Source: Escherichia coli
GTDB lineage: Bacteria > Pseudomonadota > Gammaproteobacteria > Enterobacterales > Enterobacteriaceae
DNA length: 64,000 nucleotides
Strand: one strand, 5' to 3'
Assembly (NCBI RefSeq): GCF_003018235.1
Contig: NZ_CP027437.1
Shown here piece by piece: positions 1,140 to 52,782 of this stretch (position 1 is its first letter; every line of letters begins with the position of its first letter). Both the position numbers and the translations under genes were made by a program. The notes under the pieces were generated by a model that searched no databases, was not told the origin of the DNA, and saw nothing but the letters and a program-made list of their open reading frames with translations.

Positions 1140-1167
1140 AAAACCACGTTGATATTGCTCGCACTGG

Positions 1168-1254: not shown

Positions 1255-1288
1255 AACGAGGCGATATCAAAAAAAGTAAGATGACTGT

Positions 1289-30473: not shown

Positions 30474-30677
30474 ATGTTTGGTAACTTAGGACAGGCAAAA
30501 AAATATCTCGGCCAGGCGGCAAAGATGTTGATTGGCATTCCAGACTACGACAACTACGTCGAGCATATGAAGACCAACCATCCCGACAAGCCGTACATGA
30601 GCTATGAAGAATTCTTCCGCGAACGCCAGAACGCGCGCTACGGCGGCGATGGTAAAGGCGGTATGCGCTGTTGTTAA
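30474..30677 (+). CDS. yjiX: Small DUF466-family protein partnered with CstA-type transporters
   Basis: 67-aa ORF directly after btsT. Confidence 0.8.
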
Positions 30678-30687
30678 TGGAGAGAGC

Positions 30688-31644
30688 ATGAACCCGATTG
30701 CAGTTACCCTACTCACCGGTTTTTTAGGCGCGGGCAAAACCACCCTGCTGCGCCATATTCTTAACGAACAACACGGCTACAAGATTGCCGTGATTGAAAA
30801 CGAATTCGGCGAAGTCTCCGTTGATGATCAATTGATTGGTGATCGCGCCAGGCAGATCAAAACGCTGACCAACGGCTGCATCTGCTGTTCGCGCTCCAAC
30901 GAGCTGGAAGACGCACTACTCGACCTGCTGGATAATCTCGACAAGGGCAATATTCAGTTCGATCGTCTGGTCATTGAATGCACCGGCATGGCCGATCCCG
31001 GCCCGATTATTCAGACCTTTTTCTCCCATGAGATTTTATGCCAGCGCTACCTGCTGGACGGCGTGATTGCGCTGGTGGATGCGGTACATGCCGATGAGCA
31101 GATGAACCAGTTCACCATCGCCCAGTCCCAGGTGGGCTACGCCGACCGTATTCTGCTGACTAAAACCGACGTCGCAGGTGAAGCAGAAAAACTGCGCGAA
31201 CGCCTGGCACGCATCAACGCCCGCGCACCGGTCTACACCGTCACCCACGGTGACATCGACCTGGGCCTGTTGTTCAACACCAACGGTTTTATGCTGGAAG
31301 AAAACGTCGTCAGCACCAAACCGCGTTTCCACTTTATCGCGGATAAACAAAACGATATTTCGTCGATTGTGGTGGAACTGGATTACCCGGTAGATATCAG
31401 CGAAGTTTCCCGCGTGATGGAAAACCTGCTGCTGGAATCGGCAGATAAACTGCTGCGTTACAAAGGGATGCTGTGGATTGACGGCGAACCTAACCGCCTG
31501 CTGTTCCAGGGCGTCCAGCGCCTCTACAGCGCCGACTGGGACAGGCCGTGGGGTGATGAAACACCGCATAGCACAATGGTGTTTATCGGGATTCAGCTGC
31601 CGGAGGATGAGATTCGGGCAGCGTTTGCGGGGTTGAGGAAGTAA
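30688..31644 (+). CDS. yjiA: CobW/HypB-family (COG0523) metal-binding GTPase
   Basis: Start at MNPIAVTLLTGFLGAGKTTLL (P-loop) inside ORF 30604..31644; CxCC motif (GCICCS). Confidence 0.9.
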   Translation: MNPIAVTLLTGFLGAGKTTLLRHILNEQHGYKIAVIENEFGEVSVDDQLIGDRARQIKTLTNGCICCSRSNELEDALLDLLDNLDKGNIQFDRLVIECTGMADPGPIIQTFFSHEILCQRYLLDGVIALVDAVHADEQMNQFTIAQSQVGYADRILLTKTDVAGEAEKLRERLARINARAPVYTVTHGDIDLGLLFNTNGFMLEENVVSTKPRFHFIADKQNDISSIVVELDYPVDISEVSRVMENLLLESADKLLRYKGMLWIDGEPNRLLFQGVQRLYSADWDRPWGDETPHSTMVFIGIQLPEDEIRAAFAGLRK

Positions 31645-31689: not shown

Positions 31690-32604
31690 TCACTCAAAAT
31701 AGTCCATATCCAGTTTCGGCACCTTCAACAAACGTGAAGAAACCCCTACTTCGTTTTCGATCATTAAGTGCACCAGGCGTTCCCCATCAACCAGCACCAT
31801 ACCCTCGACGGATTGGGCAAAGTCACGCGCCTGAGAAGTAAATCCAGAAGTGGTAATAAACACCCCACGTTTCGCTTTTTGCCCAGCCAGTGCGCCGTAA
31901 AATGCCTGTAATTCTGGCCTGCCTACAGTATTCTGCCAACGTTTTGCCTGAACATAAACTTTCTCCAGGCCAAGTTTATCAAGCGATATCACACCATCGA
32001 TGCCACCATCTCCAGTACCGCCAACACGCTGCAAATCATCACGGTGGCCGCCATACCCCAGGCGATGCAAAACATCCAGAACAATGACTTCAAAGCGCGA
32101 AGGAGAAACCTGCAATAAGTTTTCCAGAACCTCATCAGCCACCGCATCACGAAGCTCTTTTAGCGCCTGATCTAACCGATCGTCCGGGCTGCTCTTTGCA
32201 AGTTCTTCATGATCGGGAGAGTCGGCTTTCGGATCTAAATCGACGGCATCCGGCCGTGACTTAAGTTTGACATTCACAAAATCGAAGGCCAGATGGTTCG
32301 TCTCCTGCTCCGTCATTGGCTGGGGATGAGACGCAACCCAGTCAAAACCCGCAGGAGTCAGGCACCATTTGCCACGCGACAAACTTTGCGACAACCCGGC
32401 ACGTTTTAAACGGTCATGCGCCCAGCCTGCACGATTTTTATAAACAAGTTGTCCGCTGGTAATGACTTTCGCTCGCTGGCTGTCATCCAGTCCTAATGCA
32501 TCCGCGGCAGCCTCATGAACATCACGCGCGGCTGCACCTTCCGGTTTTGTCGCCAGATAACGCAGAACAGGTTCAATAAATTTGTCATAGGTTGGAACCG
32601 TCAT
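31690..32604 (-). CDS. mrr: Type IV methyl-directed restriction endonuclease Mrr
   Basis: 304-aa ORF; C-terminal Mrr-cat PD-(D/E)xK domain; position flanking hsdR. Confidence 0.9.
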   Translation of the reverse strand: MTVPTYDKFIEPVLRYLATKPEGAAARDVHEAAADALGLDDSQRAKVITSGQLVYKNRAGWAHDRLKRAGLSQSLSRGKWCLTPAGFDWVASHPQPMTEQETNHLAFDFVNVKLKSRPDAVDLDPKADSPDHEELAKSSPDDRLDQALKELRDAVADEVLENLLQVSPSRFEVIVLDVLHRLGYGGHRDDLQRVGGTGDGGIDGVISLDKLGLEKVYVQAKRWQNTVGRPELQAFYGALAGQKAKRGVFITTSGFTSQARDFAQSVEGMVLVDGERLVHLMIENEVGVSSRLLKVPKLDMDYFE

Positions 32605-32791
32605 AGTACATCCTTGCAGAATCAGGTAGATGTTTTTCGGCTACTATAACACTACCAAAATAGGCGAACACGTTAGAAATGAGTCAGTTGCTGTGACCGT
32701 GGTCATTGCCCGGAAAGGTACAGAAAGCTAAGATGCGATGTTATGGGCCTTAAATATTTGGACAGGCCCACACAGCAATGGATTAATAACA

Positions 32792-35700
32792 ATGATGAAT
32801 AAATCCAATTTTGAATTCCTGAAGGGCGTCAACGACTTCACTTATGCCATCGCCTGTGCGGCGGAAAATAACTACCCGGATGATCCCAACACGACGCTGA
32901 TTAAAATGCGTATGTTTGGCGAAGCCACAGCGAAACATCTTGGTCTGTTACTCAACATCCCCCCTTGTGAGAATCAACACGATCTCCTGCGCGAACTCGG
33001 CAAAATCGCCTTCGTTGATGACAACATCCTCTCTGTATTTCACAAATTACGCCGCATTGGTAACCAGGCGGTGCACGAATATCACAACGATCTCGACGAT
33101 GCCCAGATGTGCCTGCGGCTCGGGTTCCGCTTGGCTGTCTGGTACTACCGTCTGGTCACCAAAGATTATGACTTCCCGGTGCCGGTATTTGTGTTGCCGG
33201 AACGTGGCGAAAACCTCTATCACCAGGAAGTGCTGACGCTAAAACAACAGCTTGAACAGCAGGCGCGAGAAAAAGCGCAGACTCAGGCAGAAGTCGAAGC
33301 GCAACAGCAGAAGCTGGTTGCCCTGAACGGCTATATCGCCATTCTGGAAGGCAAACAGCAGGAAACAGAAGCGCAAACCCAGGCTCGCCTTGCGGCGCTG
33401 GAAGCACAGCTTGCCGAGAAGAACGCGGAACTGGCAAAACAGACCGAACAGGAACGTAAGGCTTACCACAAAGAAATTACCGATCAGGCCATCAAGCGCG
33501 CACTCAACCTTAGCGAAGAAGAGAGCCGCTTCCTGATTGACGCGCAACTGCGTAAAGCAGGCTGGCAGGCCGATAGCAAAACCCTGCGCTTCTCCAAAGG
33601 CGCACGCCCGGAACCCGGCGTCAATAAAGCCATTGCCGAATGGCCGACCGGGAAAGATGAAACGGGTAATCAGGGCTTTGCGGATTATGTGCTGTTTGTC
33701 GGCCTCAAGCCCATCGCGGTGGTAGAGGCGAAACGTAAAAATATCGACGTTCCAGGCAAGCTCAATGAGTCTTATCGCTACAGCAAATGCTTCGATAATG
33801 GCTTCCTGCGGGAAACCTTGCTTGAGCACTACTCACCGGATGAAGTGCATGAAGCAGTGCCGGAGTATGAAACCAGCTGGCAGGACACCAGCGGCCAACA
33901 ACGGTTTAAAATCCCCTTCTGCTACTCGACCAACGGGCGCGAATACCGCGCAGCAATGAAGACCAAAAGCGGCATCTGGTATCGCGACGTGCGTGATACC
34001 CGCAATATGTCGAAAGCCTTACCCGAGTGGCACCGCCCGGAAGAGCTGCTGGAAATGCTCGGCAGTGAACCGCAAAAACAGAATCAGTGGTTTGCCGATA
34101 ACCCTGGTATGAGCGAGCTGGGTCTGCGTTATTATCAGGAAGATGCCGTCCGCGCGGTTGAAAAGGCTATCGTCAAGGGCCAACAAGAGATCCTACTGGC
34201 GATGGCGACCGGTACCGGTAAAACCCGTACGGCAATCGCCATGATGTTCCGCCTGATCCAGTCCCAACGTTTTAAACGCATTCTCTTCCTTGTGGATCGC
34301 CGCTCTCTTGGCGAGCAGGCGCTGGGGGCGTTTGAAGATACGCGTATTAACGGCGACACCTTCAACAGCATTTTCGACATTAAAGGTCTGACGGATAAAT
34401 TCCCGGAAGACAGCACAAAAATTCACGTTGCCACCGTACAGTCGCTGGTGAAACGCACCCTGCAATCAGATGAACCGATGCCGGTGGCCCGTTACGACTG
34501 TATCGTCGTTGACGAAGCGCATCGCGGCTATATTCTCGATAAAGAGCAGACCGAAGGCGAGCTGCAGTTCCGCAGCCAGCTGGATTACGTTTCTGCCTAC
34601 CGTCGCATTCTCGATCACTTCGATGCGGTAAAAATCGCCCTCACCGCCACCCCGGCGCTGCATACGGTGCAGATTTTCGGCGAGCCGGTTTACCGTTACA
34701 CCTACCGTACCGCGGTTATCGACGGTTTTCTGATCGACCAGGATCCGCCGATTCAGATCACCACCCGCAACGCACAGGAAGGGGTTTATCTCTCCAAGGG
34801 CGAACAGGTAGAGCGCATCAGCCCGCAGGGAGAAGTGATCAACGATACCCTGGAAGACGATCAGGATTTTGAGGTCGCCGACTTTAACCGAGGCCTGGTG
34901 ATCCCGGCGTTTAACCGCGCCGTCTGTAACGAACTCACCAACTACCTTGATCCGACCGGGTCACAAAAAACGCTGGTCTTCTGCGTCACCAATGCCCATG
35001 CCGATATGGTGGTGGAAGAGCTGCGTACCGCATTCAAGAAAAAGTATCCGCAACTGGAGCACGACGCGATCATCAAGATCACCGGTGATGCCGATAAAGA
35101 CGCGCGCAAAGTGCAGACCATGATCACCCGTTTCAATAAAGAGCGGCTGCCCAATATCGTGGTAACCGTCGACCTGCTGACGACCGGTGTCGATATTCCG
35201 TCGATCTGTAATATCGTGTTCCTGCGTAAAGTACGCAGCCGCATTCTGTACGAACAGATGAAAGGCCGCGCCACGCGCTTATGCCCGGAGGTGAATAAAA
35301 CCAGCTTTAAGATTTTTGACTGTGTCGATATTTACAGCACGCTGGAGAGCGTCGACACCATGCGTCCGGTGGTGGTGCGCCCGAAGGTGGAACTGCAAAC
35401 GCTGGTCAATGAAATTACCGATTCAGAAACCTATAAAATCACCGAAGCGGATGGCCGTAGCTTTGCCGAGCACAGCCATGAACAACTGGTGGCGAAGCTC
35501 CAGCGCATCATCGGCCTGGCCACATTTAACCGTGACCGCAGCGAAACGATAGATAAACAGGTGCGTCGTCTGGATGAGCTATGCCAGGACGCGGCGGGAG
35601 TGAACTTTAACGGCTTCGCCTCGCGCCTGCGGGAAAAAGGGCCGCACTGGAGCGCCGAAGTCTTTAACAAACTGCCTGGCTTTATCGCCCGTCTGGAAAA

Positions 35701-36304
35701 GCTGAAAACCGACATCAACAACCTGAATGATGCGCCGATCTTCCTCGATATCGACGATGAAGTGGTGAGCGTAAAATCGTTGTACGGTGATTACGACACG
35801 CCGCAGGATTTCCTCGAAGCCTTTGACTCGCTGGTGCAACGTTCCCCGAACGCACAGCCGGCATTGCAGGCGGTGATCAATCGCCCGCGCGATCTCACCC
35901 GTAAAGGGCTGGTCGAACTCCAGGAGTGGTTTGACCGCCAGCACTTTGAGGAATCTTCCCTGCGCAAAGCGTGGAAAGAGACGCGTAATGAAGATATTGC
36001 CGCCCGGCTGATTGGTCATATTCGCCGTGCTGCGGTAGGCGATGCGCTGAAACCGTTTGAGGAACGTGTCGATCACGCGCTGACGCGCATCAAGGGCGAA
36101 AACGACTGGAGCAGCGAGCAATTAAGCTGGCTCGATCGTTTAGCGCAGGCGCTGAAAGAGAAAGTGGTGCTCGACGACGATGTCTTCAAAACCGGCAACT
36201 TCCACCGTCGCGGCGGGAAGGCGATGCTGCAAAGAACCTTTGACGATAATCTCGACAACCTGCTCGATAAATTCAGCGATTATATCTGGGACGAGCTGGC
36301 CTGA
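32792..36304 (+). CDS. hsdR: Type I restriction enzyme R subunit (HsdR), family IA
   Basis: ORF 32738..36304, start at MMNKSNFEFL; SF2 helicase motifs (ATGTGKT, VVDEAHRG). Confidence 0.95.
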   Translation: MMNKSNFEFLKGVNDFTYAIACAAENNYPDDPNTTLIKMRMFGEATAKHLGLLLNIPPCENQHDLLRELGKIAFVDDNILSVFHKLRRIGNQAVHEYHNDLDDAQMCLRLGFRLAVWYYRLVTKDYDFPVPVFVLPERGENLYHQEVLTLKQQLEQQAREKAQTQAEVEAQQQKLVALNGYIAILEGKQQETEAQTQARLAALEAQLAEKNAELAKQTEQERKAYHKEITDQAIKRALNLSEEESRFLIDAQLRKAGWQADSKTLRFSKGARPEPGVNKAIAEWPTGKDETGNQGFADYVLFVGLKPIAVVEAKRKNIDVPGKLNESYRYSKCFDNGFLRETLLEHYSPDEVHEAVPEYETSWQDTSGQQRFKIPFCYSTNGREYRAAMKTKSGIWYRDVRDTRNMSKALPEWHRPEELLEMLGSEPQKQNQWFADNPGMSELGLRYYQEDAVRAVEKAIVKGQQEILLAMATGTGKTRTAIAMMFRLIQSQRFKRILFLVDRRSLGEQALGAFEDTRINGDTFNSIFDIKGLTDKFPEDSTKIHVATVQSLVKRTLQSDEPMPVARYDCIVVDEAHRGYILDKEQTEGELQFRSQLDYVSAYRRILDHFDAVKIALTATPALHTVQIFGEPVYRYTYRTAVIDGFLIDQDPPIQITTRNAQEGVYLSKGEQVERISPQGEVINDTLEDDQDFEVADFNRGLVIPAFNRAVCNELTNYLDPTGSQKTLVFCVTNAHADMVVEELRTAFKKKYPQLEHDAIIKITGDADKDARKVQTMITRFNKERLPNIVVTVDLLTTGVDIPSICNIVFLRKVRSRILYEQMKGRATRLCPEVNKTSFKIFDCVDIYSTLESVDTMRPVVVRPKVELQTLVNEITDSETYKITEADGRSFAEHSHEQLVAKLQRIIGLATFNRDRSETIDKQVRRLDELCQDAAGVNFNGFASRLREKGPHWSAEVFNKLPGFIARLEKLKTDINNLNDAPIFLDIDDEVVSVKSLYGDYDTPQDFLEAFDSLVQRSPNAQPALQAVINRPRDLTRKGLVELQEWFDRQHFEESSLRKAWKETRNEDIAARLIGHIRRAAVGDALKPFEERVDHALTRIKGENDWSSEQLSWLDRLAQALKEKVVLDDDVFKTGNFHRRGGKAMLQRTFDDNLDNLLDKFSDYIWDELA

Positions 36305-36505: not shown

Positions 36506-38095
36506 ATGAACAATAACGATCTGGTCGCGAAGCTGTGGAAGCTGTGCGACAACCTGCGCGATGGCGGCGTTTCCTATCAAAACTACGTCAATGAACTCGC
36601 CTCGCTGCTGTTTTTGAAAATGTGTAAAGAGACCGGGCAGGAAGCGGAATACCTGCCGGAAGGTTACCGCTGGGATGACCTGAAATCCCGCATCGGCCAG
36701 GAGCAGTTGCAGTTCTACCGAAAAATGCTCGTGCATTTAGGCGAAGATGACAAAAAGCTGGTACAGGCAGTTTTTCATAATGTTAGTACCACCATCACCG
36801 AGCCGAAACAAATAACCGCACTGGTCAGCAATATGGATTCACTGGACTGGTACAACGGCGCGCACGGTAAGTCGCGCGATGACTTCGGCGATATGTACGA
36901 AGGGCTGCTGCAGAAGAACGCCAACGAAACCAAGTCTGGTGCAGGCCAGTACTTCACCCCGCGTCCGCTGATTAAAACCATTATTCATCTGCTGAAACCG
37001 CAGCCACGTGAAGTGGTACAGGACCCGGCAGCGGGTACGGCGGGCTTTTTGATTGAAGCCGACCGCTACGTTAAGTCGCAGACCAATGATCTGGACGACC
37101 TTGATGGCGACACGCAGGATTTCCAAATCCACCGCGCGTTTATCGGCCTCGAACTGGTGCCCGGCACCCGTCGTCTGGCGCTGATGAACTGCCTGCTGCA
37201 CGATATTGAAGGCAACCTCGACCACGGCGGCGCAATCCGTCTGGGCAACACTCTGGGTAGCGACGGTGAAAACCTGCCGAAGGCGCATATTGTCGCCACT
37301 AACCCGCCGTTTGGCAGCGCCGCAGGCACCAACATTACCCGCACCTTTGTTCACCCGACCAGCAACAAACAGTTGTGCTTTATGCAGCATATTATTGAAA
37401 CGCTGCATCCCGGCGGTCGTGCGGCGGTGGTTGTGCCGGATAACGTGCTGTTTGAAGGCGGCAAAGGCACCGACATTCGTCGTGACCTGATGGATAAGTG
37501 TCATCTGCACACCATTCTGCGTCTGCCGACCGGTATTTTTTACGCTCAGGGCGTGAAGACCAACGTGCTGTTCTTTACCAAAGGGACGGTGGCGAACCCG
37601 AATCAGGATAAGAACTGTACCGATGATGTGTGGGTGTATGACCTGCGTACCAATATGCCGAGTTTCGGCAAGCGCACGCCGTTTACCGACGAGCATTTGC
37701 AGCCGTTTGAGCGCGTGTATGGCGAAGACCCGCACGGTTTAAGCCCGCGTACTGAAGGAGAATGGAGTTTTAACGCCGAAGAGACGGAAGTTGCCGACAG
37801 CGAAGAGAACAAAAATACCGATCAGCATCTTGCTACCAGCCGCTGGCGCAAGTTCAGCCGTGAGTGGATCCGCACCGCGAAATCCGATTCGCTGGATATC
37901 TCCTGGCTGAAAGATAAAGACAGTATTGATGCCGACAACCTGCCGGAGCCGGATGTGTTAGCGGCAGAAGCGATGGGCGAACTGGTACAGGCGCTGTCTG
38001 AACTGGATGCGCTGATGCGTGAACTGGGGGCGAGCGATGAGGCGGATGCGCAGCGCCAGTTGCTGGAAGAAGCATTTGGTGGGGTGAAGGAATGA
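36506..38095 (+). CDS. hsdM: Type I restriction-modification N6-adenine DNA methyltransferase subunit (HsdM)
   Basis: 529-aa ORF with SAM-binding and catalytic NPPF motif (TNPPFGSA). Confidence 0.95.
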   Translation: MNNNDLVAKLWKLCDNLRDGGVSYQNYVNELASLLFLKMCKETGQEAEYLPEGYRWDDLKSRIGQEQLQFYRKMLVHLGEDDKKLVQAVFHNVSTTITEPKQITALVSNMDSLDWYNGAHGKSRDDFGDMYEGLLQKNANETKSGAGQYFTPRPLIKTIIHLLKPQPREVVQDPAAGTAGFLIEADRYVKSQTNDLDDLDGDTQDFQIHRAFIGLELVPGTRRLALMNCLLHDIEGNLDHGGAIRLGNTLGSDGENLPKAHIVATNPPFGSAAGTNITRTFVHPTSNKQLCFMQHIIETLHPGGRAAVVVPDNVLFEGGKGTDIRRDLMDKCHLHTILRLPTGIFYAQGVKTNVLFFTKGTVANPNQDKNCTDDVWVYDLRTNMPSFGKRTPFTDEHLQPFERVYGEDPHGLSPRTEGEWSFNAEETEVADSEENKNTDQHLATSRWRKFSREWIRTAKSDSLDISWLKDKDSIDADNLPEPDVLAAEAMGELVQALSELDALMRELGASDEADAQRQLLEEAFGGVKE

Positions 38096-39459
38096 GTGCT
38101 GGGAAATTGCCGGAGGGGTGGGAACAGATTGAAATAGGCGACATTGCTGATGTCATCTCTGGTGGGACACCAAAATCGGGAGTCGCTGAAAATTTTGCAC
38201 CTTCGGGTGAGGGAGTCGCCTGGCTTACGCCTGCCGATTTGAGCGGTTATAAAGAGAAATATATCTCACATGGTGCCAGAGATTTAACTACACTAGGCTA
38301 TTCCTCTTGTTCAGCAAAACTAATGCCCAAAGGCACTATACTTTTTAGTAGCCGGGCACCGATTGGATATGTTGCTATTGCTGCAAATGAGATTGCGACT
38401 AACCAGGGTTTCAAAAGTTTTGCTTTTCCTTCAGACATTTTTCCTGATTATGCATATTACTTTCTCCGCAACATCAGACATATTGCAGAGGAAATGGGCA
38501 CAGGAACAACTTTTAAAGAAATTTCTGGTAGTTCTGCGAAAACATTACCATTTGTTCTTGTACCGTTTGCCGAACAAAAAATCATCGCTGAAAAACTCGA
38601 TACGCTGCTGGCACAGGTAGACAGCACCAAAGCACGTCTTGAGCAAATCCCACAAATCCTGAAACGTTTTCGTCAGGCGGTTCTGGGTGCAGCGGTGAGA
38701 GGAAAACTAACTGAAGACTGGAGAGATAATTCAAGCCTGTCTGGGTGGAGAGAAGGCAAACTTGGGGAGTTTATAAAAAAACCAAGTTACGGAACGTCAT
38801 CTAAGTCTAATAAAGAAGGACTCATTCCTGTATTAAGAATGGGCAATCTTCAGGGAGGAAAGTTGGACTGGACGGATCTAGTCTATACGTCAGATACCAT
38901 AGAAATTGAAAAGTATAAACTTGAGTACAATGATGTATTATTCAATCGTACAAATAGTCCTGAACTTGTCGGGAAAACAGCCATATATAAATCAGAGCAA
39001 CCAGCTATTTATGCAGGTTATTTGATTAGGGTTCAATGTTTACCTGATTTAAACCCTGACTATCTTAACTACCATTTAAATAGCATTTTGGGGAGACAAT
39101 ATTGCTATTCAGTTAAATCTGATGGGGTCAGTCAATCAAATATTAATGCACAGAAATTAATTGCATACCCAATAACTGTTCCCCCCCTTCCCGAACAAGC
39201 TGAAATCGTTCGCCGCGTCGAGCAACTCTTCGCCTACGCCGACACAATAGAAAAACAGGTCAACAACGCCTTAGCCCGCGTCAACAATCTGACGCAATCC
39301 ATCCTGGCAAAAGCGTTCCGTGGTGAACTCACCGCCCAGTGGCGGGCCGAAAACCCGGAATTAATCAGCGGTGAAAACAGCGCCGCCGCGTTGCTGGAGA
39401 AAATCAAAGCTGAACGCGCAGCCAGCGGGGGTAAAAAAGCCTCGCGTAAAAAGTCCTGA
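38092..39459 (+). CDS. hsdS: Type I R-M specificity subunit HsdS, family IA conserved framework with two divergent target-recognition domains
   Basis: 455-aa ORF overlapping hsdM stop; conserved N-terminus, central and C-terminal EcoKI-like framework; variable blocks (~38130-38560, ~38700-39180) are AT-rich and unlike K-12. Confidence 0.9.
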   Translation: MSAGKLPEGWEQIEIGDIADVISGGTPKSGVAENFAPSGEGVAWLTPADLSGYKEKYISHGARDLTTLGYSSCSAKLMPKGTILFSSRAPIGYVAIAANEIATNQGFKSFAFPSDIFPDYAYYFLRNIRHIAEEMGTGTTFKEISGSSAKTLPFVLVPFAEQKIIAEKLDTLLAQVDSTKARLEQIPQILKRFRQAVLGAAVRGKLTEDWRDNSSLSGWREGKLGEFIKKPSYGTSSKSNKEGLIPVLRMGNLQGGKLDWTDLVYTSDTIEIEKYKLEYNDVLFNRTNSPELVGKTAIYKSEQPAIYAGYLIRVQCLPDLNPDYLNYHLNSILGRQYCYSVKSDGVSQSNINAQKLIAYPITVPPLPEQAEIVRRVEQLFAYADTIEKQVNNALARVNNLTQSILAKAFRGELTAQWRAENPELISGENSAAALLEKIKAERAASGGKKASRKKS

Positions 39460-39592
39460 TCATTATTTTCTGGCGCACCTTTCTGGTGCGCTATTTATTA
39501 TTTTTACGCCAATCATAACTCACACAAATATATTTAAATCGTTCCAGAAACTTCCCATTTTATTCTATTTTTAGCTGGACTTTCCCTGTATT

Positions 39593-39612
39593 TACTGATG
39601 ATATATCCAGGT
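39593..39612. promoter_or_regulatory. LexA (SOS) box-like site upstream of symE
   Basis: tactgatgatatatccaggt: CTG-N10-CAG core with AT-rich centre. Confidence 0.5.
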
Positions 39613-39639
39613 ATTTAGCGCGATGCGGATGTGCGCCAA

Positions 39640-39720
39640 CACACCCGCACCGCTCATCACAATCACTATTTATGGAGAATAGTAATCATGACTGACACGC
39701 ATTCTATTGCACAACCGTTC
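39640..39720 (-). ncRNA. symR: Candidate antisense sRNA SymR (type I antitoxin) overlapping the symE translation-initiation region; boundaries approximate
   Basis: Positional inference from the known symE/symR arrangement; not folded or promoter-mapped here. Confidence 0.35.
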
Positions 39721-40029
39721 GAAGCAGAAGTCTCCCCGGCAAATAACCGTCAATTAACCGTGAGTTATGCGAGTCGCTACCCGGATTACAGCCGTATTCC
39801 CGCCATCACCCTGAAAGGTCAGTGGCTGGAAGCCGCCGGTTTTGCCACTGGCACGGCGATAGATGTCAAAGTGATGGAAGGCTGTATTGTCCTCACCGCC
39901 CAACCCCCCGCCGCCGAAGAGAGCGAACTGATGCAGTCGCTTCGCCAGGTGTGCAAGCTGTCGGCGCGTAAACAAAGGCAGGTGCAGGAGTTTATTGGAG
40001 TGATTGCCGGTAAACAGAAAGTCGCGTAA
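39688..40029 (+). CDS. symE: SOS-induced toxin SymE (AbrB/SpoVT-fold endoribonuclease-like)
   Basis: Start at [15 protein letters not shown] inside ORF 39631..40029; 113 aa; between hsdS and mcrB. Confidence 0.85.
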
Positions 40030-40190
40030 CAGCGTTTACTCCCGGTTAACCACCGGGAGCTTTCCACTGACTCAATAGAAACTTTCCCCCTCAGTAAATA
40101 TTTACCTGCCTGATTGTGCAGTAAAAATCTATTGTTTCAGTACGTTGCGAAAGCGATAATAGAGGCTTAGCAATGAGGAAGGCACATCTT

Positions 40191-41570
40191 ATGGAATCAA
40201 TTCAAGCCTGGATTGAAAAATTTATTGAGCAAGCACAGCAACAAAGTTCACAATCCACTAAAGATTATCCAACGTCTTACCGTAACCTGCGAGTAAAAGT
40301 GAGTTTCGGTTATGGCAATTTTACATCTATTCCCTGGTTTGCATTTCTTGGAGAAGGTCAGGAAGTTTCTAACGGTATATATCCCGTTATTCTCTATTAT
40401 AAAGATTTTGATGAGTTGGTTTTGGCTTATGGTATAAGTGACACGAATAAACCACATGCCCAATGGCACTTTTCTTCTGACATACCTAAAACAATCGCAG
40501 AGTATTTCCAGGCAACTTCAGGTGTATATCCTAAAAAATACGGACAGTCCTATTACGCCTGTTCCCAAAAAGTCTCACAGGGTCTTGATTATACCCGGCT
40601 TGCCTCCATGCTGGACAACATAATCAACGACTATAAATTAATATTTAATTCTGGCAAGAGTGTTATTCCACCTATGTCAAAAACTGAATCATACTGTCTG
40701 GAAGATGCGTTAAATGATTTGTTTATCCCTGAAACCACAATAGAGACGATACTCAAACGATTAACCATCAAAAAAAATATTATCCTCCAGGGGCCGCCCG
40801 GCGTTGGAAAAACCTTTGTTGCACGCCGTCTGGCTTACTTGCTGACAGGAGAAAAGGCTCCGCAACGCGTCAATATGGTTCAGTTCCATCAATCTTATAG
40901 CTATGAGGATTTTATACAGGGCTATCGTCCGAATGGCGTCGGCTTCCGACGTAAAGACGGCATATTTTACAATTTTTGTCAGCAAGCTAAAGAGCAGCCA
41001 GAGAAAAAGTATATTTTTATTATAGATGAAATCAATCGTGCCAATCTCAGTAAAGTATTTGGCGAAGTGATGATGTTAATGGAACATGATAAACGAGGTG
41101 AAAACTGGTCTGTTCCCCTAACCTACTCCGAAAACGATGAAGAACGATTCTATGTCCCGGAGAATGTTTATATCATCGGTTTAATGAATACTGCCGATCG
41201 CTCTCTGGCCGTTGTTGACTATGCCCTACGCAGACGATTTTCTTTCATAGATATTGAGCCAGGTTTTGATACACCACAGTTCCGGAATTTTTTACTGAAT
41301 AAAAAAGCAGAACCTTCATTTGTTGAGTCTTTATGCCAAAAAATGAACGAGTTAAACCAGGAAATCAGCAAAGAGGCCACTATCCTTGGGAAAGGATTCC
41401 GCATTGGGCATAGTTACTTCTGCTGTGGGTTGGAAGATGGCACCTCTCCGGATACGCAATGGCTTAATGAAATTGTGATGACGGATATCGCCCCTTTACT
41501 CGAAGAATATTTCTTTGATGACCCCTATAAACAACAGAAATGGACCAACAAATTATTAGGGGACTCATAG
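40191..41570 (+). CDS. mcrB: 5-methylcytosine-specific restriction enzyme McrBC, GTPase/DNA-binding subunit McrB
   Basis: ORF 40173..41570, start at MESIQAWIEKF; AAA+ GTPase motifs GPPGVGKT and NTADRS. Confidence 0.9.
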   Translation: MESIQAWIEKFIEQAQQQSSQSTKDYPTSYRNLRVKVSFGYGNFTSIPWFAFLGEGQEVSNGIYPVILYYKDFDELVLAYGISDTNKPHAQWHFSSDIPKTIAEYFQATSGVYPKKYGQSYYACSQKVSQGLDYTRLASMLDNIINDYKLIFNSGKSVIPPMSKTESYCLEDALNDLFIPETTIETILKRLTIKKNIILQGPPGVGKTFVARRLAYLLTGEKAPQRVNMVQFHQSYSYEDFIQGYRPNGVGFRRKDGIFYNFCQQAKEQPEKKYIFIIDEINRANLSKVFGEVMMLMEHDKRGENWSVPLTYSENDEERFYVPENVYIIGLMNTADRSLAVVDYALRRRFSFIDIEPGFDTPQFRNFLLNKKAEPSFVESLCQKMNELNQEISKEATILGKGFRIGHSYFCCGLEDGTSPDTQWLNEIVMTDIAPLLEEYFFDDPYKQQKWTNKLLGDS

Positions 41571-42616
41571 TGGAACAGCCCGTGATACCTGTCCGTAATA
41601 TCTATTACATGCTTACCTATGCATGGGGTTATTTACAGGAAATTAAGCAGGCAAACCTTGAAGCCATACCCGGTAACAATCTTCTTGATATCCTGGGGTA
41701 TGTATTAAATAAAGGGGTTTTACAGCTTTCACGCCGAGGGCTTGAGCTTGATTACAATCCTAATACCGAGATCATTCCTGGCATCAAAGGGCGAATAGAG
41801 TTTGCTAAAACAATACGCGGCTTCCATCTTAATCATGGGAAAACCGTCAGTACTTTTGATATGCTTAATGAAGACACGCTGGCTAACCGAATTATAAAAA
41901 GCACATTAGCCATATTAATTAAGCATGAAAAGTTAAATTCAACTATCAGAGATGAAGCTCGTTCACTTTATAGAAAATTACCGGGCATTAGCACTCTTCA
42001 TTTAACTCCGAAGCATTTCAGCTATCTGAACGGCGGAAAAAATACGCGTTATTATAAATTCGTTATCAGTGTCTGCAAGTTCATCGTCAATAATTCTATT
42101 CCAGGTCAAAACAAAGGACATTATCGTTTCTATGAATTTGAAAGAAATGAAAAAGAGATGTCATTACTTTATCAAAATTTTCTTTTTGAATTTTGCCGTC
42201 GTGAATTACCATCTGTAAATACAACTCGCCCACATTTAAAATGGGATGCATCAAGCATATCGGATCAATCACTTAGCTTGTTACCTCGAATGGAAACTGA
42301 CATCACCATTAACTCATCAGGGAAAATACTTATCGTTGATGCCAAATACTATAAAAGCATTTTTTCACGACGAATGGGTACAGAAAAGTTTCATTCTCAA
42401 AATCTATATCAACTGATGAGTTACTTATGGTCGTTAAAGCCTGAAAATGGCGAAAAAACAGGGGGGTTATTAATATACCCACACGTAGACACCTCAGTGA
42501 AACATCGTTATAAAATTAATGGCTTCGATATTGGCTTGTGTACCGTCAATTTAGGTCAGGAATGGCCGTGTATACATCAAGAATTACTCGACATTTTCGG
42601 TGAATATCTCAAATAA
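41570..42616 (+). CDS. mcrC: McrBC endonuclease subunit McrC (PD-(D/E)xK)
   Basis: GTG start overlapping mcrB stop (VEQPVIPVRNIYYMLTYAWG) within ORF 41540..42616. Confidence 0.85.
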   Translation: MEQPVIPVRNIYYMLTYAWGYLQEIKQANLEAIPGNNLLDILGYVLNKGVLQLSRRGLELDYNPNTEIIPGIKGRIEFAKTIRGFHLNHGKTVSTFDMLNEDTLANRIIKSTLAILIKHEKLNSTIRDEARSLYRKLPGISTLHLTPKHFSYLNGGKNTRYYKFVISVCKFIVNNSIPGQNKGHYRFYEFERNEKEMSLLYQNFLFEFCRRELPSVNTTRPHLKWDASSISDQSLSLLPRMETDITINSSGKILIVDAKYYKSIFSRRMGTEKFHSQNLYQLMSYLWSLKPENGEKTGGLLIYPHVDTSVKHRYKINGFDIGLCTVNLGQEWPCIHQELLDIFGEYLK

Positions 42617-42672: not shown

Positions 42673-45600
42673 TCAGGAGGCGATCACCTCCACCAGCACA
42701 TCCGTTGCCCAACTCTCTTCGCTGTTGGCGACATTCCCTTCCTTGCAGGCCTGAGCCATTTTGACTAACTGGAAAGAAACGTCATCGCGGAAATCAAAGT
42801 AATGCCATTGCGATGCAAAGTTGATGCGCCAGTAGCCCATCCCCTGATCGAAGCGGATCTTCAATACCTGACCATCATCAAAAGTCACCGTCAGTTTACG
42901 ATGGTGAGGGATATCGCGCGGCGAGTCGAACACCGTCAGTTCTACCGGCCTGCCCAGCGCAGCAGCAAACCACTGATCAGCGAAATCCTGAAAATCCGCT
43001 ATGCTCATCCAGTCATGGAAAGGCCGGTTACCGGGGCGATCTTTATCTTTAAATAGCGTATCCAGCGTCACTTCAGCGCCATCGGTCAGCTTTGTTTTTA
43101 GCGGTCTCAAAATTGATCCCAACAACGCCAGCGCAACCGGGTTTTGCAGATAGCGATCGGTATAGTGAACGCCGGTAATTCGCGTGTTATTCATCAGTGA
43201 CTGCGCTTCTTCATGGTCGTTAAACAGCACGTCCCAGAAGCGTTGCCCAAACTGCGACAGTGGTCCATTCAACTGTTTGTGGATCTGAATGTCTTTGACC
43301 CGCTCGACAGCGTTGGCGGCTTTAGCCGGCAGAATAAATTCGTTCAGCTCTACCGTTTTATAGCCGAGACTACGTACCACCAGTTCGTCATTCAGGTGCC
43401 ACTCCGGCCCCGGAATCGTTGCCTGCTGGCTACGAGAGGCCAGCGTCATCACGCGATCGGCAAAGGTGACCTGAGCAACGATCGGTAATTTCAAATCCTG
43501 TTCAACATGGCATAGCCGCACACCCAGCGCAGTAAATTGCGATAGTTCGTGCAACAGGTCCGGGTCATCCACTCCCGCAGGAATAACAAGATCGACCTCG
43601 ACGTTGTCTTTTAGCCGATAGTTCTGAACCGCCGCGCGGAACTGACGTGCGTATAAATCCCACTCATTGGGCGCGCCGGTCATCCACAGGGTGAGCTTTT
43701 CAGCGCCTTCGTTAATCGCCCGGCGAATCGTATCGCCAATGGCGCCAGGGCAGTAGCGGGCATCCGGCAGCGAGAATGTCTCTTCATCCGGTAAACCGAT
43801 GTAATACGTGAAGTCATCGCCAAGCCAGGCCAGCGCCGCTTTGCGATCCAGCAAATCGTGATCGTGGCGAGTCTGGGAATCAAGCAGGCATTCACTACAT
43901 GCAGTCTCACAATGGCGGCAGCCTAACTGTTTCACCATTCCCTGCAATATAGCTTCAATGTGTACCGGTGCGCTGGAGGCAAAACCTGCACCACCGCTGA
44001 TCACATCATAAAGCTGTACGGCTAATACCGATTGCCCATCCTCCAGTCTGACCGGACGTACAGAATAGCCGAGTTCTGCGGCGGAGATACCCAGAACGCC
44101 CGCCAGCGCCTGACGCAGAGCAACCGCCAGAGTCATGGCAACAATCCGCCCCTCCTCTGTGTTATCTGGCAGATACTCGCCGTTTTGCGGTTTGCGCAGA
44201 ATCATTTCAAAGACATCGGTGCGCGCCAGTGCGCCCAGGGTGACGTTCTTCATGAGTGCCGTCGAACCGGGGCAAATCAGACGATGATTCTGGCTGTCGC
44301 GATCCGCTTTACCCGGACGCGGTGGATAGTGAGCTTCCATGCTTTTCGGCGCATCATTTTCATTCAGCATCGACTCAGCACGGCCACAGCTCAGACACAA
44401 TGCATAACCGTGTCCACCTTCCCCCAAACTTTGCTGGAAAACATGCCCATCAGCCCCAGAAGCCATATAACCCATTAGCGGGTTAGGCAACGGTACGGGC
44501 TCTGCTTTAACAAAGACCCACGCGGGGACAACCGGGACGAATTTCATGGTTTCAATATTGTTCGTTACCGGAGCGTGTGCATCGGTGACAAACCCGGCAG
44601 GCTGCAGCACCTGACGGCGATTATCCATGATTATTTTTTCGCCGCAGGCGCTATTGGAGCAAAAGAGCATCCCGGAACTGCTCATCCCCTCTTCATAGCC
44701 AATGGTCCCGCATTTGTGACAGCGCCAGGCGCAATCCAGACGCTGGGCTTCATTGGTATCAGCATTAATGTTGTGCCAGTGCAGTGAGACACCGGCAGAG
44801 CGGAAGACACGGCCATCAAGAATGATCTCTGCTCCCGGTGCATATTCACGAATGGCAACACCGAGGTTACGGGAAGGTAATCCTTTATAACGGGAGACGT
44901 TATCTTCACGGTCCTTTTTATCACGACTTTTTTGCGATTTTTCGCGGATATAATCTTCCATTGTGAAGTTATCAAACGTCACTACATCTGTCGGGAAACC
45001 GTATCCCGGCAAGAAGGTTCTGGCAGCTAGATCGCGCAGCAGATACTCGCCACAGTGCCGTTTCTTCTCCAGCTCTATGCGCTTACGATAAGGCGTTTGC
45101 GGCTGCGACTCACGCTCCTGTGTCACGAGATCGCGATAAACGGAGAGCCACCGCTGCTGCAGGAAGGTGATCGCGTTGATTGTTTTATCCCGCAGATATT
45201 CGGCTCTTGCACCATGCAACGCCGTACCTTTCACCAGCCGTTCCAGCGCCGTGTCGATATCAAGAACAGGGCGTTCCAGCCAGACTTTGAAGCGTTCGCA
45301 TTTTGACTGCCCGTCATCTTCACCGAAAAACCAGAGGCTATCGAGGCTGGTTTTCTCTTTATCGGTTTCGCCAATAACGTTACATAAAAAGTCGGACAGT
45401 AATAATGCATTGACGTGACGTTGCACCAGTCGGGCGGAGTTCATCGCGACCATGGGTGCCGGGATCATGGTTTCAAATGGCCAGAGCGGGTTGGCAAAAA
45501 CCTGCTGGTCGTGTGGGTTACCTTTACATAGGGTGTAAGAGATCGCACGTGATTCTTTACTACGCCCGGCTCGCCCGGCGCGCTGTAAATAGTTGGCCGG

Positions 45601-48600
45601 ATGTGGCGGTACGTTGTTCATTACCACCGCAGTAATGCCCCCGATATCAACCCCCATTTCCATGGTGGTGGAACAGTTGAGAACATTTAGTTGCCCATTC
45701 TTGAACATCTTTTCATAGCTTTGCAGACGTTCTGACGACTGCTGGGCAGAGTGCTCGGCAGTGCGATAGTAGAAACCGCCTTCCACGACACGATCGTTGA
45801 TGTCTGTCCAGACGTTTTCCGACCGCAATTGTGCGATCAGCGGATCATTGCTGACCCAGTCGCGTGCTTTTGCCAGACCCTCTGCGTAGTCTTCCTGTGA
45901 ACGATCCAGCTTCCAGATTTCCGGCATGGTGACTTTCTGCGCGACAAAAGTGTCATATTGCGCCTGGGTAAGATGCTCGAACGAAATATGGGTAGGCAGA
46001 TAAGGGGTTAAGCCTTTAAAAGCCGTATCCAGGATTTTATTGGTTACCGGGCAAATCCAGGCATCCGTGATTAATGAAAAAGTCATATGCTCTTTCGGTA
46101 AATAAAAACGGTTGCCATCGGGTTTCAGTACTGCAAGCGGTCCGGTAAGTTGGGCCCATGCTTCTTTCAGCCATGTATTGATAATATCAATAGTCGCCGT
46201 ATTGACGGTTTTGAATCCAGCCCCCAGCATCAGTAACTTCGCTAAACGATGGGATACGTTGCCATTACGAATTTGAGGCCAGCGTCTGTTCTGATTATCT
46301 TCAGGATCTTTTGATTCCGGGTTACGGACGAATTTTGATGAAAAACGGCTACCGATCCAGTTTTTCAGCTCATCATCCAGCTGTGTGAAGTTGCTCTCAC
46401 GAACGTAATGATCCAGCGTAACTTTGAGAAAATCGCGCCAGTCATCCAGCGTTAATCCTTTTTCCTGCCAGTGCAGAGGGATCTTATGTATTTTCTCCAG
46501 CCCCAGGTAACCAACCTGAACCAGCCCTTGTGTTTCCAGGCTGTTAGTCCGTTTAGGGCGACGCATGAATTCCCGGAATAACAACATTTCCGAAAGCTTT
46601 AGAGGCCCGCCGTTTTCATTAAACACTTCAGGCTTAAGATAATGGTTATATTGCAGAACCGGGCCACGGATATCGGCTCTCTCTTTAAGCTCGTTAACCA
46701 TTTCTGTCCAGGTTCGGGATACCAGAGTAATTGCAGCTTTTCCACCGATTGCAGACTGGTAAGCCTGTTCAAGCTGCTCGGCCTGCGCTTCTGATAATTT
46801 CGCTTGATCCGGCAATCCCCAGCTTCGATATTCTTCTGCCTGCTCACGGGCTTGCTTTACCCTGGTCGCTAATTTTTCCAGATCGGCATTAGCGTTCGGC
46901 GCCGTGGGCGTTTGCGTTCGTTGATGCCAGCTCAGAATTTCGACTACGCTTCCGCGTAAGCGACTACGTTCTGCTTCTTGCTGCATACGCACCGCCATCC
47001 GGGCTGTCCCTTGTCGACTATCCGTAAAGGTAATGAGTCGACGTCCTCGCCCTGGCAACGAATCTGGTCCGACGCCCTCTTTGCCTTCATCACTGGCAAA
47101 GTCCTGACAATACTCAAGAACGGTGGGAACGATATTAGTAACGTAAAATGGCCCACCTAATAGTGCACGCCGGAAGGGCTGTTTCCCGCTCATGCCTCTG
47201 AAGCCACAGCCGCTGGCGCTACAAACCTGTTCAATATCATTAATAATCAGCGGAATGCTGTCATTATTAATAACGCCAATACGGCGCGTCTGACGGTCGA
47301 GGCGTTGTAGGGTATAGCCTGTCTCGCTGGTCTCTCCTGCGGCAATAATCAACGGAGGCTGGAAACCGTTCTCTTTTTCGACTTTTTCCTCTGTAGTGTC
47401 ATGTTCAACAGGTACTTCATCCTGCAAGGAGAACTCATCGCCACCTTTATTTTCCCATTGGACAAGTTTGCCCTTTTTGTCCTGCGCCAGAAGATGAGGC
47501 TCATTACAATCATTACAGAACGCCACTTCGTAGACAGGGCTTCCACAGTCGCAATTTTGTCGCTGGTTCACATACACATAGCCAAAGGGCCAGCCTTTTT
47601 CGAGCGGTGTACCGTGCTTTAATCTGCAATCTTTATCAACACAAGCCCATATTCCCTGGGTATTACGCTGGAAGATATGCGCCCTGACTTTAAGAAATGC
47701 GGGATCCTTTGCATTAGGTTGAGTCCCTGAACAGACATCGATCCAACGCAGTACTTCCTGCTGGCTGTAATGCTGTTTTGTCAGCGCATTTAACCGCTGC
47801 GTCATCTCATCCAGTTTCATTGGATTAGGTTGGCTAACCAACATTTCACGTATGTAACGCGCTTCGGGGGAGTGCGTAAGCGCATAAAAGCGCTCAGGAC
47901 TTATCCCTTTAATTTTATTATCATTTTTATCTTTTAGATCCAGATCAGGTATTTGCTCTATTTCGTCTAACGGAACAGAAACGTTTTTGGATGGTTCCAG
48001 TTCAGGAATCACCCGACTTCCGTCCAGAACATCGATGCGCTCCTGCGGGATACCGGATAATTCAGAGAGAAATTTTTTCAGCTGCTTTTCAGCGTCGCTG
48101 CCGGCAATGGTCGCAGAGGTCGCTACAAAGCGCACGTCATCTGGTGTCACGCCAAACGCTGTCATCACACGACGCAGCTGGAGCGCCAGTTCAGCGGCCT
48201 GCGACCCGACATAGGTATGCGCTTCATCCAGTACAATCCAGCGTAGTGATTTTTGTGCTTTAGATTGCTGGATAATCGGGGCGTCGACCTGGCGAACCAT
48301 CATATATTCCAGCATCGTGCCGTTGGTCACCAGAATCGGCGCAGGTTCTTCACGCATTTTTTCGCGCGAGAGCACCTCATTCGGCCTTTTTGCCTGTTCA
48401 CTTTTTACCGAAGCGTGTAGGTTTTCGGTGTTGCCGTTGTAAAGGCAGTAGCGAATCCCAGTACCAAAACCACGCGTCCAGGCATCCAGACGCTCGCGCT
48501 GTGAATTAATCAAGGCGTTCAATGGATAGAGAAAAAGGGCTCGGACACCAACCAACGGATTGTTGCCATTTTCATGCAGTTCCCGGTAAAGATCTTCCAG

Positions 48601-49017
48601 CACCGGAACCATAAAACATTCCGTTTTACCTGAACCCGTACCACTGGTTACCACCACTGAATGTTTCTTTTCCAGCAAAGCTTTCCAACTGGCTAACTGG
48701 TGTGTAAAAGGCTTCCAGTCAGCACCAAATCGGTACCGGCCATTACTCTGATTATCCAGTGAATCAACCACTGCTTTGCTCAACAATGCGTTGCCTTCCG
48801 TCAGGCTGCGCATCGTGTGATTTGACTCCTTCCATCCAAACATTTGCTGGAATACCGGAGAAGCAAGGAATGAGCCCGGTTTCCCACAATCAGCCCCCAT
48901 TTGTTGCGCGAGATGTTCACGCAGCTGCGGGTTGGTAACGCCCATGATACTGAGCGTTGCTTCAGTTGAACGAGACAACGATTGTTCAATAAGTGACGAA
49001 AAATAGCGTGTAGTCAT
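42673..49017 (-). CDS. Giant (2114 aa) DEAD/DEAH-box SF2 helicase with zinc-ribbon/DUF1998-like cysteine clusters; candidate DruE-like effector of a Druantia type III-like defence module
   Basis: Single uninterrupted ORF; Walker [15 protein letters not shown] box VLDEAHTY, motif [11 protein letters not shown]; Cys clusters [42 protein letters not shown]; family assignment is by pattern recognition. Confidence 0.7.
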
Positions 49018-50818
49018 CCTTATTCCTTTTTATTTTTTAGCAACATAACGCAACAGGCTGCACTGAAAGATGGTCTTAAACCAGCGGGAATCGAAGTCCC
49101 TGACTTACCTCAGGAAAAATACGGCACCGGGTTTACGGTCAAATACAGCTTCAAAAGAAGTATTTCCGCTTGCCACAGCTGCAGCGAAGACGGGTAACCA
49201 GGCCACGGAATAGCGGTGATTTGCGTCAGGATTAATACCAATCACTGGATTTTTTTGTGACATCATCCATTTATACAGACGCTTGCAGCCATATTCAGGC
49301 CAGCGAGCTTCACTGTGCTCACGTAAAAGCTCCTGATACCACCCGTGGACACAAGATTCAGGAATAGACGGAGGGAGATATCCGTTACTTAACCATTTCT
49401 CAATTTCATCGGCATATGTCGGGAACACGAGCCCCAGCCGTTGAAACATATTAGTAACCAGTAATTTCTGGGTTTCCTCCGGTGCACCTTTTTGGCTCAG
49501 GAACAATTTGAAACGCTCAGATGCAGCTTTGATCTCAAAGATGGGGAAAAACTCCCATAGAATAGGGAACTCATTCTCAATACGACTCAGGTACTCTGCT
49601 GACATTTCAAATTTGAAGAGCGACATCGCCAATGCCTGCGGATGCTGCACTAGTGCACGCCATACTTCAAAGGTTGCCAGCGGTAAATAACCAAATTGAT
49701 CGTACAGGCTACGCATAAATTGCCAGCCGGAATGGGCAGGATCGTTAGCCATCTGTCCGAGAACCAGTGTGATGGTATTAACTTCTGCCTGTGGATTAAA
49801 AAGCTGGGTCGCTTTCTGCAATGAGCGGATGTTGCTTTCTTCTACCGGTAACGAAGATTCGCCACGAATGAAGCAGGGGCGAAAAGCCATCTCCTCACCC
49901 GGTTTAGGAACAACCAACCATGGCCCATTTTTGTTAACGATTGAGCTCAACTCATATTCACCGACAGGCACTCCCTCGCTCATTCTTGATGCTAAGGGGA
50001 TGGATTTCCTCTCGGGTTCACTTAACAGCATGATAACGGGGGAAGGAATCTGCCCAGCACGATGGTTCACTGACTGGCTGAGTAATAGTTCTTTTTCATA
50101 ATCATAGCGCAGGCTGTATTTATAGCGACGAATTTGCCAGGCCATGACCACACCTGCCCCCGTAATACGCATCTCAACAACCTGATCAATACCTGCCTCA
50201 AGTGAAATCAGGTTCTCAATATGTTCGCGCAGACTATAGAGATTCAATTCAACAGGACGATCGCTCAACGCCGTATAACACCATTCATGCCATGCCTGTA
50301 ATCCACTAACGGAGCGCAAATACAACTGCAATGTATATTTTGTCGGCTCACCATTTCTGGAGAACAGAAACGCTCTGGAACCCAGCAGATCATGCAGCGT
50401 AATGTTTTTATCCAGAGGACGTCCGTTTACATCAAGAGCGAGACAGCCTTTAGCGGGAAAAGGTAACTCAATGTCGATGGGGTCAGCCGCCAAATTAGGC
50501 AGAACTTGTAATGTAATAAATGCCGGAGGTACCCCTTCCGCTTTAAGTTGTATCTCTGTTCGCCCCTCAGTACGCTTACGTGTAGCCTCCAATGTTTTAT
50601 CTTTAAGTTTTGCTACACAAGGATGCTGTGTGGTGATTAAGATAGTGCCTTCATTTGCGTGCATTCCACCTTTTATCTCAATACTGAAATCAGCAGGCAA
50701 GATACCGATTTTGCGACGCAAGAGCGTTTCATTGTTACTATTACGGATAGAAAGATATTGAGCCCCCAGCATCTCTTGTATATGACATTGCTCAATTGAA
50801 ATTCCGCTCAGGTAACGC

Positions 50819-50823
50819 GTTAC
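50819..50823. repeat. Target-site duplication GTTAC (left copy)
   Basis: Identical 5-mer directly flanks both IS termini. Confidence 0.8.
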
Positions 50824-52777
<1,954 letters not shown>

Positions 52778-52782
52778 GTTAC
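52778..52782. repeat. Target-site duplication GTTAC (right copy)
   Basis: Identical 5-mer directly flanks both IS termini. Confidence 0.8.

Follow-up and report, generated by a model that had tools for sequence, protein, structure and literature searches.

The 64,000-nucleotide stretch of Escherichia coli DNA that was analysed (the window) almost certainly carries the chromosomal symE/symR module of E. coli, intact and at its usual site, with a way of working that can be read across from K-12. Its elements are all there, complete, in the right geometry and conserved in other Enterobacteriaceae: a full-length symE reading frame, the gene of an antisense RNA, SymR, laid over the start of that frame, and a LexA box upstream of symE. 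The properties that would make these elements a working module (dependence on LexA, repression by SymR, turnover of SymE by Lon, and DNA binding by SymE) are taken from experiments in K-12. The closest known system is the K-12 module itself (symE, b4347, and symR, b4625, formerly yjiW and ryjC; Kawano, Aravind and Storz 2007): a SymE of 113 aa, a SymR of 77 nt that reaches over the first 6 nt of the ORF, and a LexA box that lies 95 to 76 nt before the ATG, exactly the distance found in the window.

The locus and its place in the immigration control region

Between 30.6 and 42.6 kb the window is an E. coli-type immigration control region: a block of restriction genes beside the boundary gene yjiA, in the order yjiA-type GTPase, mrr, hsdR, hsdM, hsdS, symE, mcrB, mcrC (Table 1). 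This layout fits the published description of the region (PMC12707154); E. coli K-12 has the same order, hsdS - symE - mcrB (K-12-derived strain, MG1655), and a stretch of housekeeping genes that flanks it shows 99% identity to E. coli genomes. The initial annotation had placed symE between hsdS and mcrB, rightly and without a misplaced coordinate; the span that it singled out, 39460-40029, extends from the first base past the hsdS stop through the symE stop codon, and includes a spacer of 228 nt between hsdS and symE.

A hairpin lies at either end of symE and its spacer. The one just after hsdS has the look of a terminator, and may be taken, purely as context, to close the hsd operon and to bound the symE/symR (symER) cassette on its upstream side. 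The one that follows symE is identical to its K-12 counterpart and is probably a weak terminator or a 3' stabiliser: the segment 40025-40075 folds with -16.1 kcal/mol (z = -3.2), and the terminator scan made no call there because the run of Ts is short. Farther downstream, mcrB has an in-frame ATG at 40173, six codons 5' of the start annotated in K-12. The AGGAAGG between the two starts resembles a Shine-Dalgarno sequence for the second of them, and the shorter mcrB is therefore probably correct.

Table 1. Features of the symE/symR locus and of the genes around it (window coordinates)
Feature	Coordinates	Strand	Remarks
yjiA-type GTPase	30604-31644		
mrr	31690-32604	-	
hsdR	32738-36304		
hsdM	36506-38095		
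hsdS	38092-39459	+	
Terminator-like hairpin and T-run just after hsdS	39471..39493	+	9-bp stem, 6 GC pairs, tail TTTATTATTT (terminator scan)
TGGACT, probable symE -35	39576..39581	+	within conserved GCTGGACTTT block
LexA (SOS) box TACTGATGATATATCCAGGT, predicted	39593..39612	.	CTG-N10-CAG, AT-rich spacer
SymR, 77-nt cis-antisense antitoxin RNA	39617..39693	-	two stem-loops; Rfam RF01809
symE Shine-Dalgarno GGAG	39674-39677	+	10 nt before ATG, wholly within SymR duplex region
symE CDS	39688-40029	+	113 aa + stop; ORF, PF08845, NF010128
SymR promoter -10 box TAGAAT	39701..39706	-	embedded in symE codons 5-7
Candidate SymR -35 TTCTGC	39724..39729	-	17-nt spacer; TTGACA match 2/6; weak, tentative
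Hairpin CTCCCGG-loop-CCGGGAG, then CTTTCC	40039..40059	+	10 nt past symE stop
mcrB	40191-41570	+	
mcrC	41540-42616		

The symE gene and its product

The symE reading frame is intact and its product is a member of the SymE family. It matches the NCBIfam equivalog NF010128 with 229.4 bits (cut-off 132) over positions 1-112 of 113 and the Pfam family PF08845 (SymE_toxin) with 76.6 bits (cut-off 29) over the entire profile (positions 1-54 of 54); 107/113 of its residues (95%) are those of K-12 SymE. The start is assigned to the ATG at 39688 because it is preceded by the GGAG Shine-Dalgarno sequence, is invariant in 36/36 loci of the alignment described below, and fits the K-12 annotation; a longer ORF of 132 aa, opening with the GTG at 39631, was considered and rejected. 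The ribosome-binding site is also retained across that alignment, as a GGAG, AGGG or AAGG block.

What sort of protein is it? The core of SymE (residues about 20-71) belongs to the SymE_toxin Pfam family, and SymE has been described as homologous to MazE (PMC1891008), which with AbrB and SpoVT is one of the swapped-hairpin DNA-binding proteins. Unlike these, which serve as antitoxins or as transcription factors, SymE is the member of its pair that inhibits growth. An AlphaFold2 model of moderate confidence (24 homologues; mean pLDDT 66.4), made for the monomer only of what, in the AbrB/MazE-like fold, is an obligate dimer, predicts a disordered N-terminus, then beta strands (residues 26-71), then two C-terminal helices; the disordered N-terminus and the paired helices would be additions to the MazE/AbrB/SpoVT plan. 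When the modelled monomer was compared with the PDB by Foldseek, AbrB, MazE and SpoVT took ranks 2-8, none of them significantly (best E = 0.29; target-normalised TM-scores at most 0.65), and the AbrB-type fold is for that reason taken here from the literature. Searches of PDB chains by sequence or profile found no solved relative of SymE, and PADLOC has no model that matches it.

K-12 SymE inhibits growth when it accumulates (PMC1891008, PMC11894785). At 95% identity the SymE of the window would be expected to do likewise, and to be the toxin of a type I toxin-antitoxin pair, which is how the initial annotation had cast it. The growth-inhibiting part of that description stands, by way of K-12; its content has since been refined, and the current description of SymE is that of a DNA-binding protein associated with the nucleoid (PMC11894785, NC_000913.3). 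The change has reached the databases unevenly: NC_000913.3 names the product 'nucleoid-associated protein SymE', while PGAP-annotated genomes and NCBIfam have 'endoribonuclease SymE'.

The older name stands for a different account of the toxin, with its regulation unchanged: an endoribonuclease that cleaves mRNA, possibly on ribosomes, and recycles damaged RNA after the SOS response. It was not without foundation, as SymE co-purified with ribosomes and its overproduction cut both protein synthesis and RNA levels (PMC1891008), and NCBIfam and PGAP have kept it. On the other side, Thompson et al. (2022), as reported in PMC11894785, saw no RNA cleavage in vivo and detected no RNase activity, whereas SymE did bind DNA without sequence specificity and compact the nucleoid; the reference K-12 record now carries the nucleoid-associated name; no nuclease motif is known in SymE; and its domain is of the DNA-binding AbrB/MazE type, the type whose members fill ranks 2-8 of the fold search, albeit at non-significant scores. 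An endoribonuclease accordingly seems improbable, and a DNA-binding protein is the better description of SymE.

The antisense RNA

The initial annotation had expected the translation-initiation region of symE to be covered by an antisense SymR, and so it is: the minus strand gives a match to the Rfam symR model, RF01809, of 95.8 bits (gathering score 61; E = 1.6e-17) that takes in model positions 1-77 of 77, is not truncated, and spans both the Shine-Dalgarno sequence and the start codon. The 5' end of SymR is 3 nt beyond the symE start codon, and the RNA extends back through the AUG (39688-39690) and the Shine-Dalgarno sequence into the 5' UTR, ending only 5 nt from the LexA box. Its overlap with the symE ORF is 6 nt, the same as for MG1655 symR (b4625, NC_000913.3). 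Complementarity to the symE mRNA is automatically perfect since SymR is encoded in cis.

The predicted minimum free energy of SymR is -41.1 kcal/mol (z = -5.96), that of the sense strand only -23.6 kcal/mol. Such a difference between strands is to be expected if the numerous G-U pairs are important to the structure of SymR. In the predicted fold, the sequence complementary to the Shine-Dalgarno, CUCC (SymR positions 17-20), is displayed in the first apical loop.

The SymR promoter is embedded in coding sequence. The region that contains it, 39690-39752, is identical to that of K-12, in which Kawano et al. abolished SymR by changing CATTCT (39700-39705 of the window) to CACTCC (PMC1891008), and the -10 pattern TAnAAT is invariant in 36/36 loci. 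A -35 element is harder to point to: the candidate entered in Table 1 is a tentative one, and although the CAGAAG around it is conserved in the 36 loci, that could stem instead from the E-V codons that it encodes. The other end of the RNA is odd: the 3' hairpin of SymR is followed by GCUAAAUACC (39600-39617, minus strand) rather than by a U-tract, and the 3' end may come about through atypical termination, through trimming as far as the hairpin, or by some other route.

(A technical note on promoter prediction, which had been suggested as a check on the antisense RNA: a sigma-70 scan of 39300-40300 called no promoter for either symE or SymR. The scan demanded at least 4/6 matches in each hexamer; it is not counted against transcription because these criteria miss the SymR promoter that has been proven in K-12.)

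The LexA box and the probable symE promoter

A LexA-box-like site upstream of symE had likewise been claimed from the start, and holds up. The predicted box, TACTGATGATATATCCAGGT, has the form CTG-N10-CAG with conserved half-sites, and scores 16.0 bits by a LexA weight matrix, the best match in the 64-kb window and within the range of the reference sites (12.5-26.4). (The matrix was built from 24 LexA sites of the literature; the symE site was left out.) The score by itself is not decisive: in shuffled windows the best LexA score is 12.5 at the median and 16.1 at the 95th percentile, which makes 16.0 borderline. It is the position of the site and its conservation across species that place it beyond chance. 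The corresponding K-12 site is a published LexA site: binding of LexA and damage-inducible transcription are reported for yjiW/symE (Fernandez De Henestrosa 2000, as cited in PMC1891008). The heterology index of the site is 7.9 and symE expression is LexA-dependent (PMC11228462), though the same recent transcriptome registered no induction of symE by AZT.

The box differs from that of K-12 at a single base, 39607, which is C here and A in K-12; the K-12 allele scores 17.2 bits by the same matrix, against 16.0. A search with 34-mers finds the window allele in 1976 complete E. coli genomes (1956 of them exact) and the K-12 allele in 437. Thus the window carries the commoner E. coli allele of the box, and K-12 the minority one.

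The promoter that the box would control can be sketched. The hexamer TGGACT, a 4/6 match to TTGACA, is placed 17-18 nt 5' of AT-rich hexamers within the LexA box and is probably the symE -35 element; in the 36 loci its T39576 and G39578 are invariant, and G39577, A39579 and T39581 are retained in at least 90%. The -10 region (TGATAT or GATATA, 39599-39605) would then probably overlap the LexA box, with a match to consensus that is weak (3/6).

Other LexA-like sequences in the window do not amount to much. Ranks 2 and 3 by the matrix, 938-957 (11.5 bits, just upstream of the tRNA-Leu cluster) and 41293-41312 (10.8 bits, TACTGAATAAAAAAGCAGAA, within mcrB), score lower than any of the reference sites and probably arose by chance. 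The loose pattern TACTG-N10-CAG occurs 7 times against 0.93 expected; this excess was rejected as a signal. Six of the 7 matches are in coding sequence, have GC-rich or atypical spacers, and score low by the weight matrix, and the excess probably arises from the use of CTG and CAG codons, which shuffling does not preserve.

Conservation among the Enterobacteriaceae

A search with a degenerate SymR pattern yielded 35 loci in other species of Enterobacteriaceae, which together with the window make up an alignment of 36 distinct sequences. The symE ATG is in register in 35/35 of the retrieved loci, most of which encode a SymE homologue of 108-115 aa, and in nearly all of them a CTG-N10-CAG sequence is found 58-62 nt from the SymR pattern; the LexA-type motif is degraded in a few (its CTG is TTG in L004 and L029, for example). 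Among the 36 loci no variation is seen at the T or the G of CTG, nor at the A or the G of CAG; each of the two Cs is retained in at least 90%, and several positions of the spacer vary.

The two stem-loops predicted for SymR are backed by covariation, with the proviso that the test is a fair one for stem 2 only, because most of stem 1 was already prescribed by the search pattern. Of the alignment cells 97.1% are paired, as against 24-53% in slid controls; double-sided (compensatory) changes are seen at 10 SymR pairs, 9 of which are among the 15 of the 3' hairpin; and none of 500 shuffles matched the observed pairing, double-sided changes or covariation score.

In four loci (L005, L021, L035 and L036) symE has been truncated to 30-95 codons while SymR, its promoter and the LexA-type box are intact; in one of these (L036, from Pseudocitrobacter) the symE remnant adjoins a yjiA (CobW-type) gene. 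They look like orphan antitoxin RNAs that have outlasted the decay of their toxins.

Could the module of the window itself be decaying or silent? Compared with K-12 it differs at one base of the LexA box (39607), at eight bases of the 77-nt SymR region and at six SymE residues, and such changes in the box or in SymR might in principle have uncoupled its regulation; some relatives do have a truncated symE beside an intact SymR. Against decay stand the following: 1) The symE ORF is full length. 2) The box retains CTG-N10-CAG, its allele is the majority one in E. coli, and C is the base at the position equivalent to 39607 in 10/24 of the reference LexA boxes. 3) The SymR changes keep the predicted fold or improve it, a G44-U71 pair now closing a bulge. 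4) The SymR promoter is as in K-12, and pairing with symE, being encoded in cis, is not impaired by substitutions. A decayed or silenced module is thus hardly to be credited, and an intact one of the K-12 type is the reading that is retained in what follows.

How the module would work

The following picture is carried over from K-12 and fitted to the elements found in the window. LexA bound to its box, which would overlap the symE -10 region, should keep symE silent; DNA damage, by provoking the self-cleavage of LexA, would release it. SymR would be made constitutively from the opposite strand, from its promoter inside the first symE codons, and would pair with nearly the whole of the symE 5' UTR, the Shine-Dalgarno sequence, the AUG and 3 nt more, blocking the loading of ribosomes. 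Pairing would probably begin at the anti-Shine-Dalgarno loop of SymR hairpin 1. Lon would remove any SymE that is made in spite of these controls, and SymE that does accumulate would bind DNA non-specifically through its AbrB/MazE-like domain, compact the nucleoid and bring growth to a stop. The exact start of symE transcription, the identity of its -10 box and the loop-first order of pairing are the parts of this picture that we infer.

In K-12 the three controls exerted by LexA, SymR and Lon are additive (PMC1891008, PMC4147584). SymR acts there mainly as a block to translation, for which RNase III and Hfq are both dispensable; it is about tenfold more abundant than the symE mRNA, and its effect on the level of that mRNA is modest, an approximately threefold lowering (PMC1891008, PMC4147584). 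Two other E. coli pairs, tisB/istR-1 and dinQ/agrB, are put together on the same principle, a LexA-repressed toxin whose translation is blocked by a small RNA (PMC4147584). They differ from symE/symR in their toxins, which are small hydrophobic membrane peptides rather than a soluble AbrB-type protein of 113 aa, and in the arrangement of their RNAs: IstR-1 and AgrB are divergently encoded, whereas SymR is fully cis-antisense to the symE 5' UTR.

Why beside restriction genes?

The initial annotation had also seen in symE/symR a link between DNA-damage signalling and the immigration control region. Co-location is the part of this proposal that survives; anything further goes beyond the evidence. 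A review counts the symE-symR pair with the toxin-antitoxin systems found alongside type I families here (PMC12707154), and the related loci permit a glance at how regular the association is. For 28 of them 1.2 kb or more of the sequence upstream is available. In 11 of the 28, symER directly follows an intact type I gene that has its orientation; a twelfth has an hsdS remnant there. The intact gene is hsdS ten times and hsdR once (L020); its distance from the symE ATG is mostly 214-245 nt (350 nt in L007). The HsdM proteins encoded next to symER belong to at least two lineages, one 93-98% and the other 25-29% identical to HsdM of the window, and the HsdR of L020 is distinct. In the other 16/28 loci symER sits beside unrelated genes (LacI-family, GFO oxidoreductase, GH43, yjiA). 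The co-location of symER with type I genes is thus real and recurrent, and it is not obligatory.

One can think of symER as a functional accessory to the type I restriction-modification system next to it, SOS-induced SymE serving, for example, to limit self-restriction. Its recurrence directly downstream of type I genes, of at least two HsdM lineages, and its listing in the review just cited are what such an accessory would lead one to expect. The 16 loci with unrelated neighbours are not, nor is Raoultella planticola, which has two symER copies on the same contig (the second is L016), only one of them beside hsd; the terminator-like hairpin between hsdS and symE also sets the cassette apart from the operon; and toxin-antitoxin modules commonly gather in defence islands as selfish passengers (PMC1891008). 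A role as accessory is therefore quite unlikely, and the passenger explanation of Kawano et al. (PMC1891008) is kept as the default for symER.

The downstream side of the cassette varies too. Three loci (L017, L022 and L024, from Raoultella planticola, Escherichia whittamii and Citrobacter portucalensis) have a convergent druE right after symE, without mcrBC. Since symE and druE are directly joined there, mcrBC must be an insertion at this junction, or have been lost from it elsewhere.

Neighbouring features of the window

Several other features of the window deserve to be recorded. HsdS is built like that of EcoKI (type IA): its conserved regions, central and C-terminal, are almost the same as in K-12 HsdS, and both of its target-recognition domains differ (identity is 45% overall), and the strain should therefore recognise a DNA sequence other than that of EcoKI. 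Beyond mcrC lies a minus-strand gene (42673-49017) for a DruE helicase of 2114 aa, the full-length type III Druantia protein (PADLOC, 2697 bits over the whole model); its K-12 equivalent, yjiV, is a broken pseudogene, whereas druE of the window is intact. The next ORF on that strand (49105-50853, 582 aa) corresponds to no more than the C-terminal half of DruH/YjiT (positions 491-1072 of 1090 in the NCBIfam model), and this truncated druH directly adjoins an IS21-family element (50910-52711, plus strand) that encodes an IstA of 340 aa with an rve integrase domain and an IstB of 260 aa (IstB_IS21, 373 bits). The element probably interrupts druH, and Druantia may consequently be inactive here. 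A further minus-strand ORF of 393 aa (52762-53943) has no Pfam match; it might be the N-terminal half that druH lacks. Near the other end of the window are three identical tandem tRNA-Leu(CAG) genes of the leuQPV type (1053-1375, plus strand).

Significance

The symE/symR locus has been known and characterised since 2007; in the window it is intact and ordinary, and there is nothing new in it. Its importance beyond correct annotation is slight. PGAP-style annotation omits SymR, and the label 'endoribonuclease' for SymE is out of date. Comparison across species, by way of the alignment, cleanly supports three elements: the half-sites of the LexA box, the -10 box of SymR and its 3' hairpin.

Only one observation might open up something new, namely that symER is found time and again right behind type I operons: it follows hsdS, or in one locus hsdR, of at least two or three unrelated type I lineages. 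If symER were a conserved 3' appendage of these operons, SymE could work together with type I restriction; that is a long shot. Were it true, SymE might, for example by compacting or coating DNA, limit self-restriction when unmodified sites appear during repair, and would have to be seen as something other than a selfish passenger.
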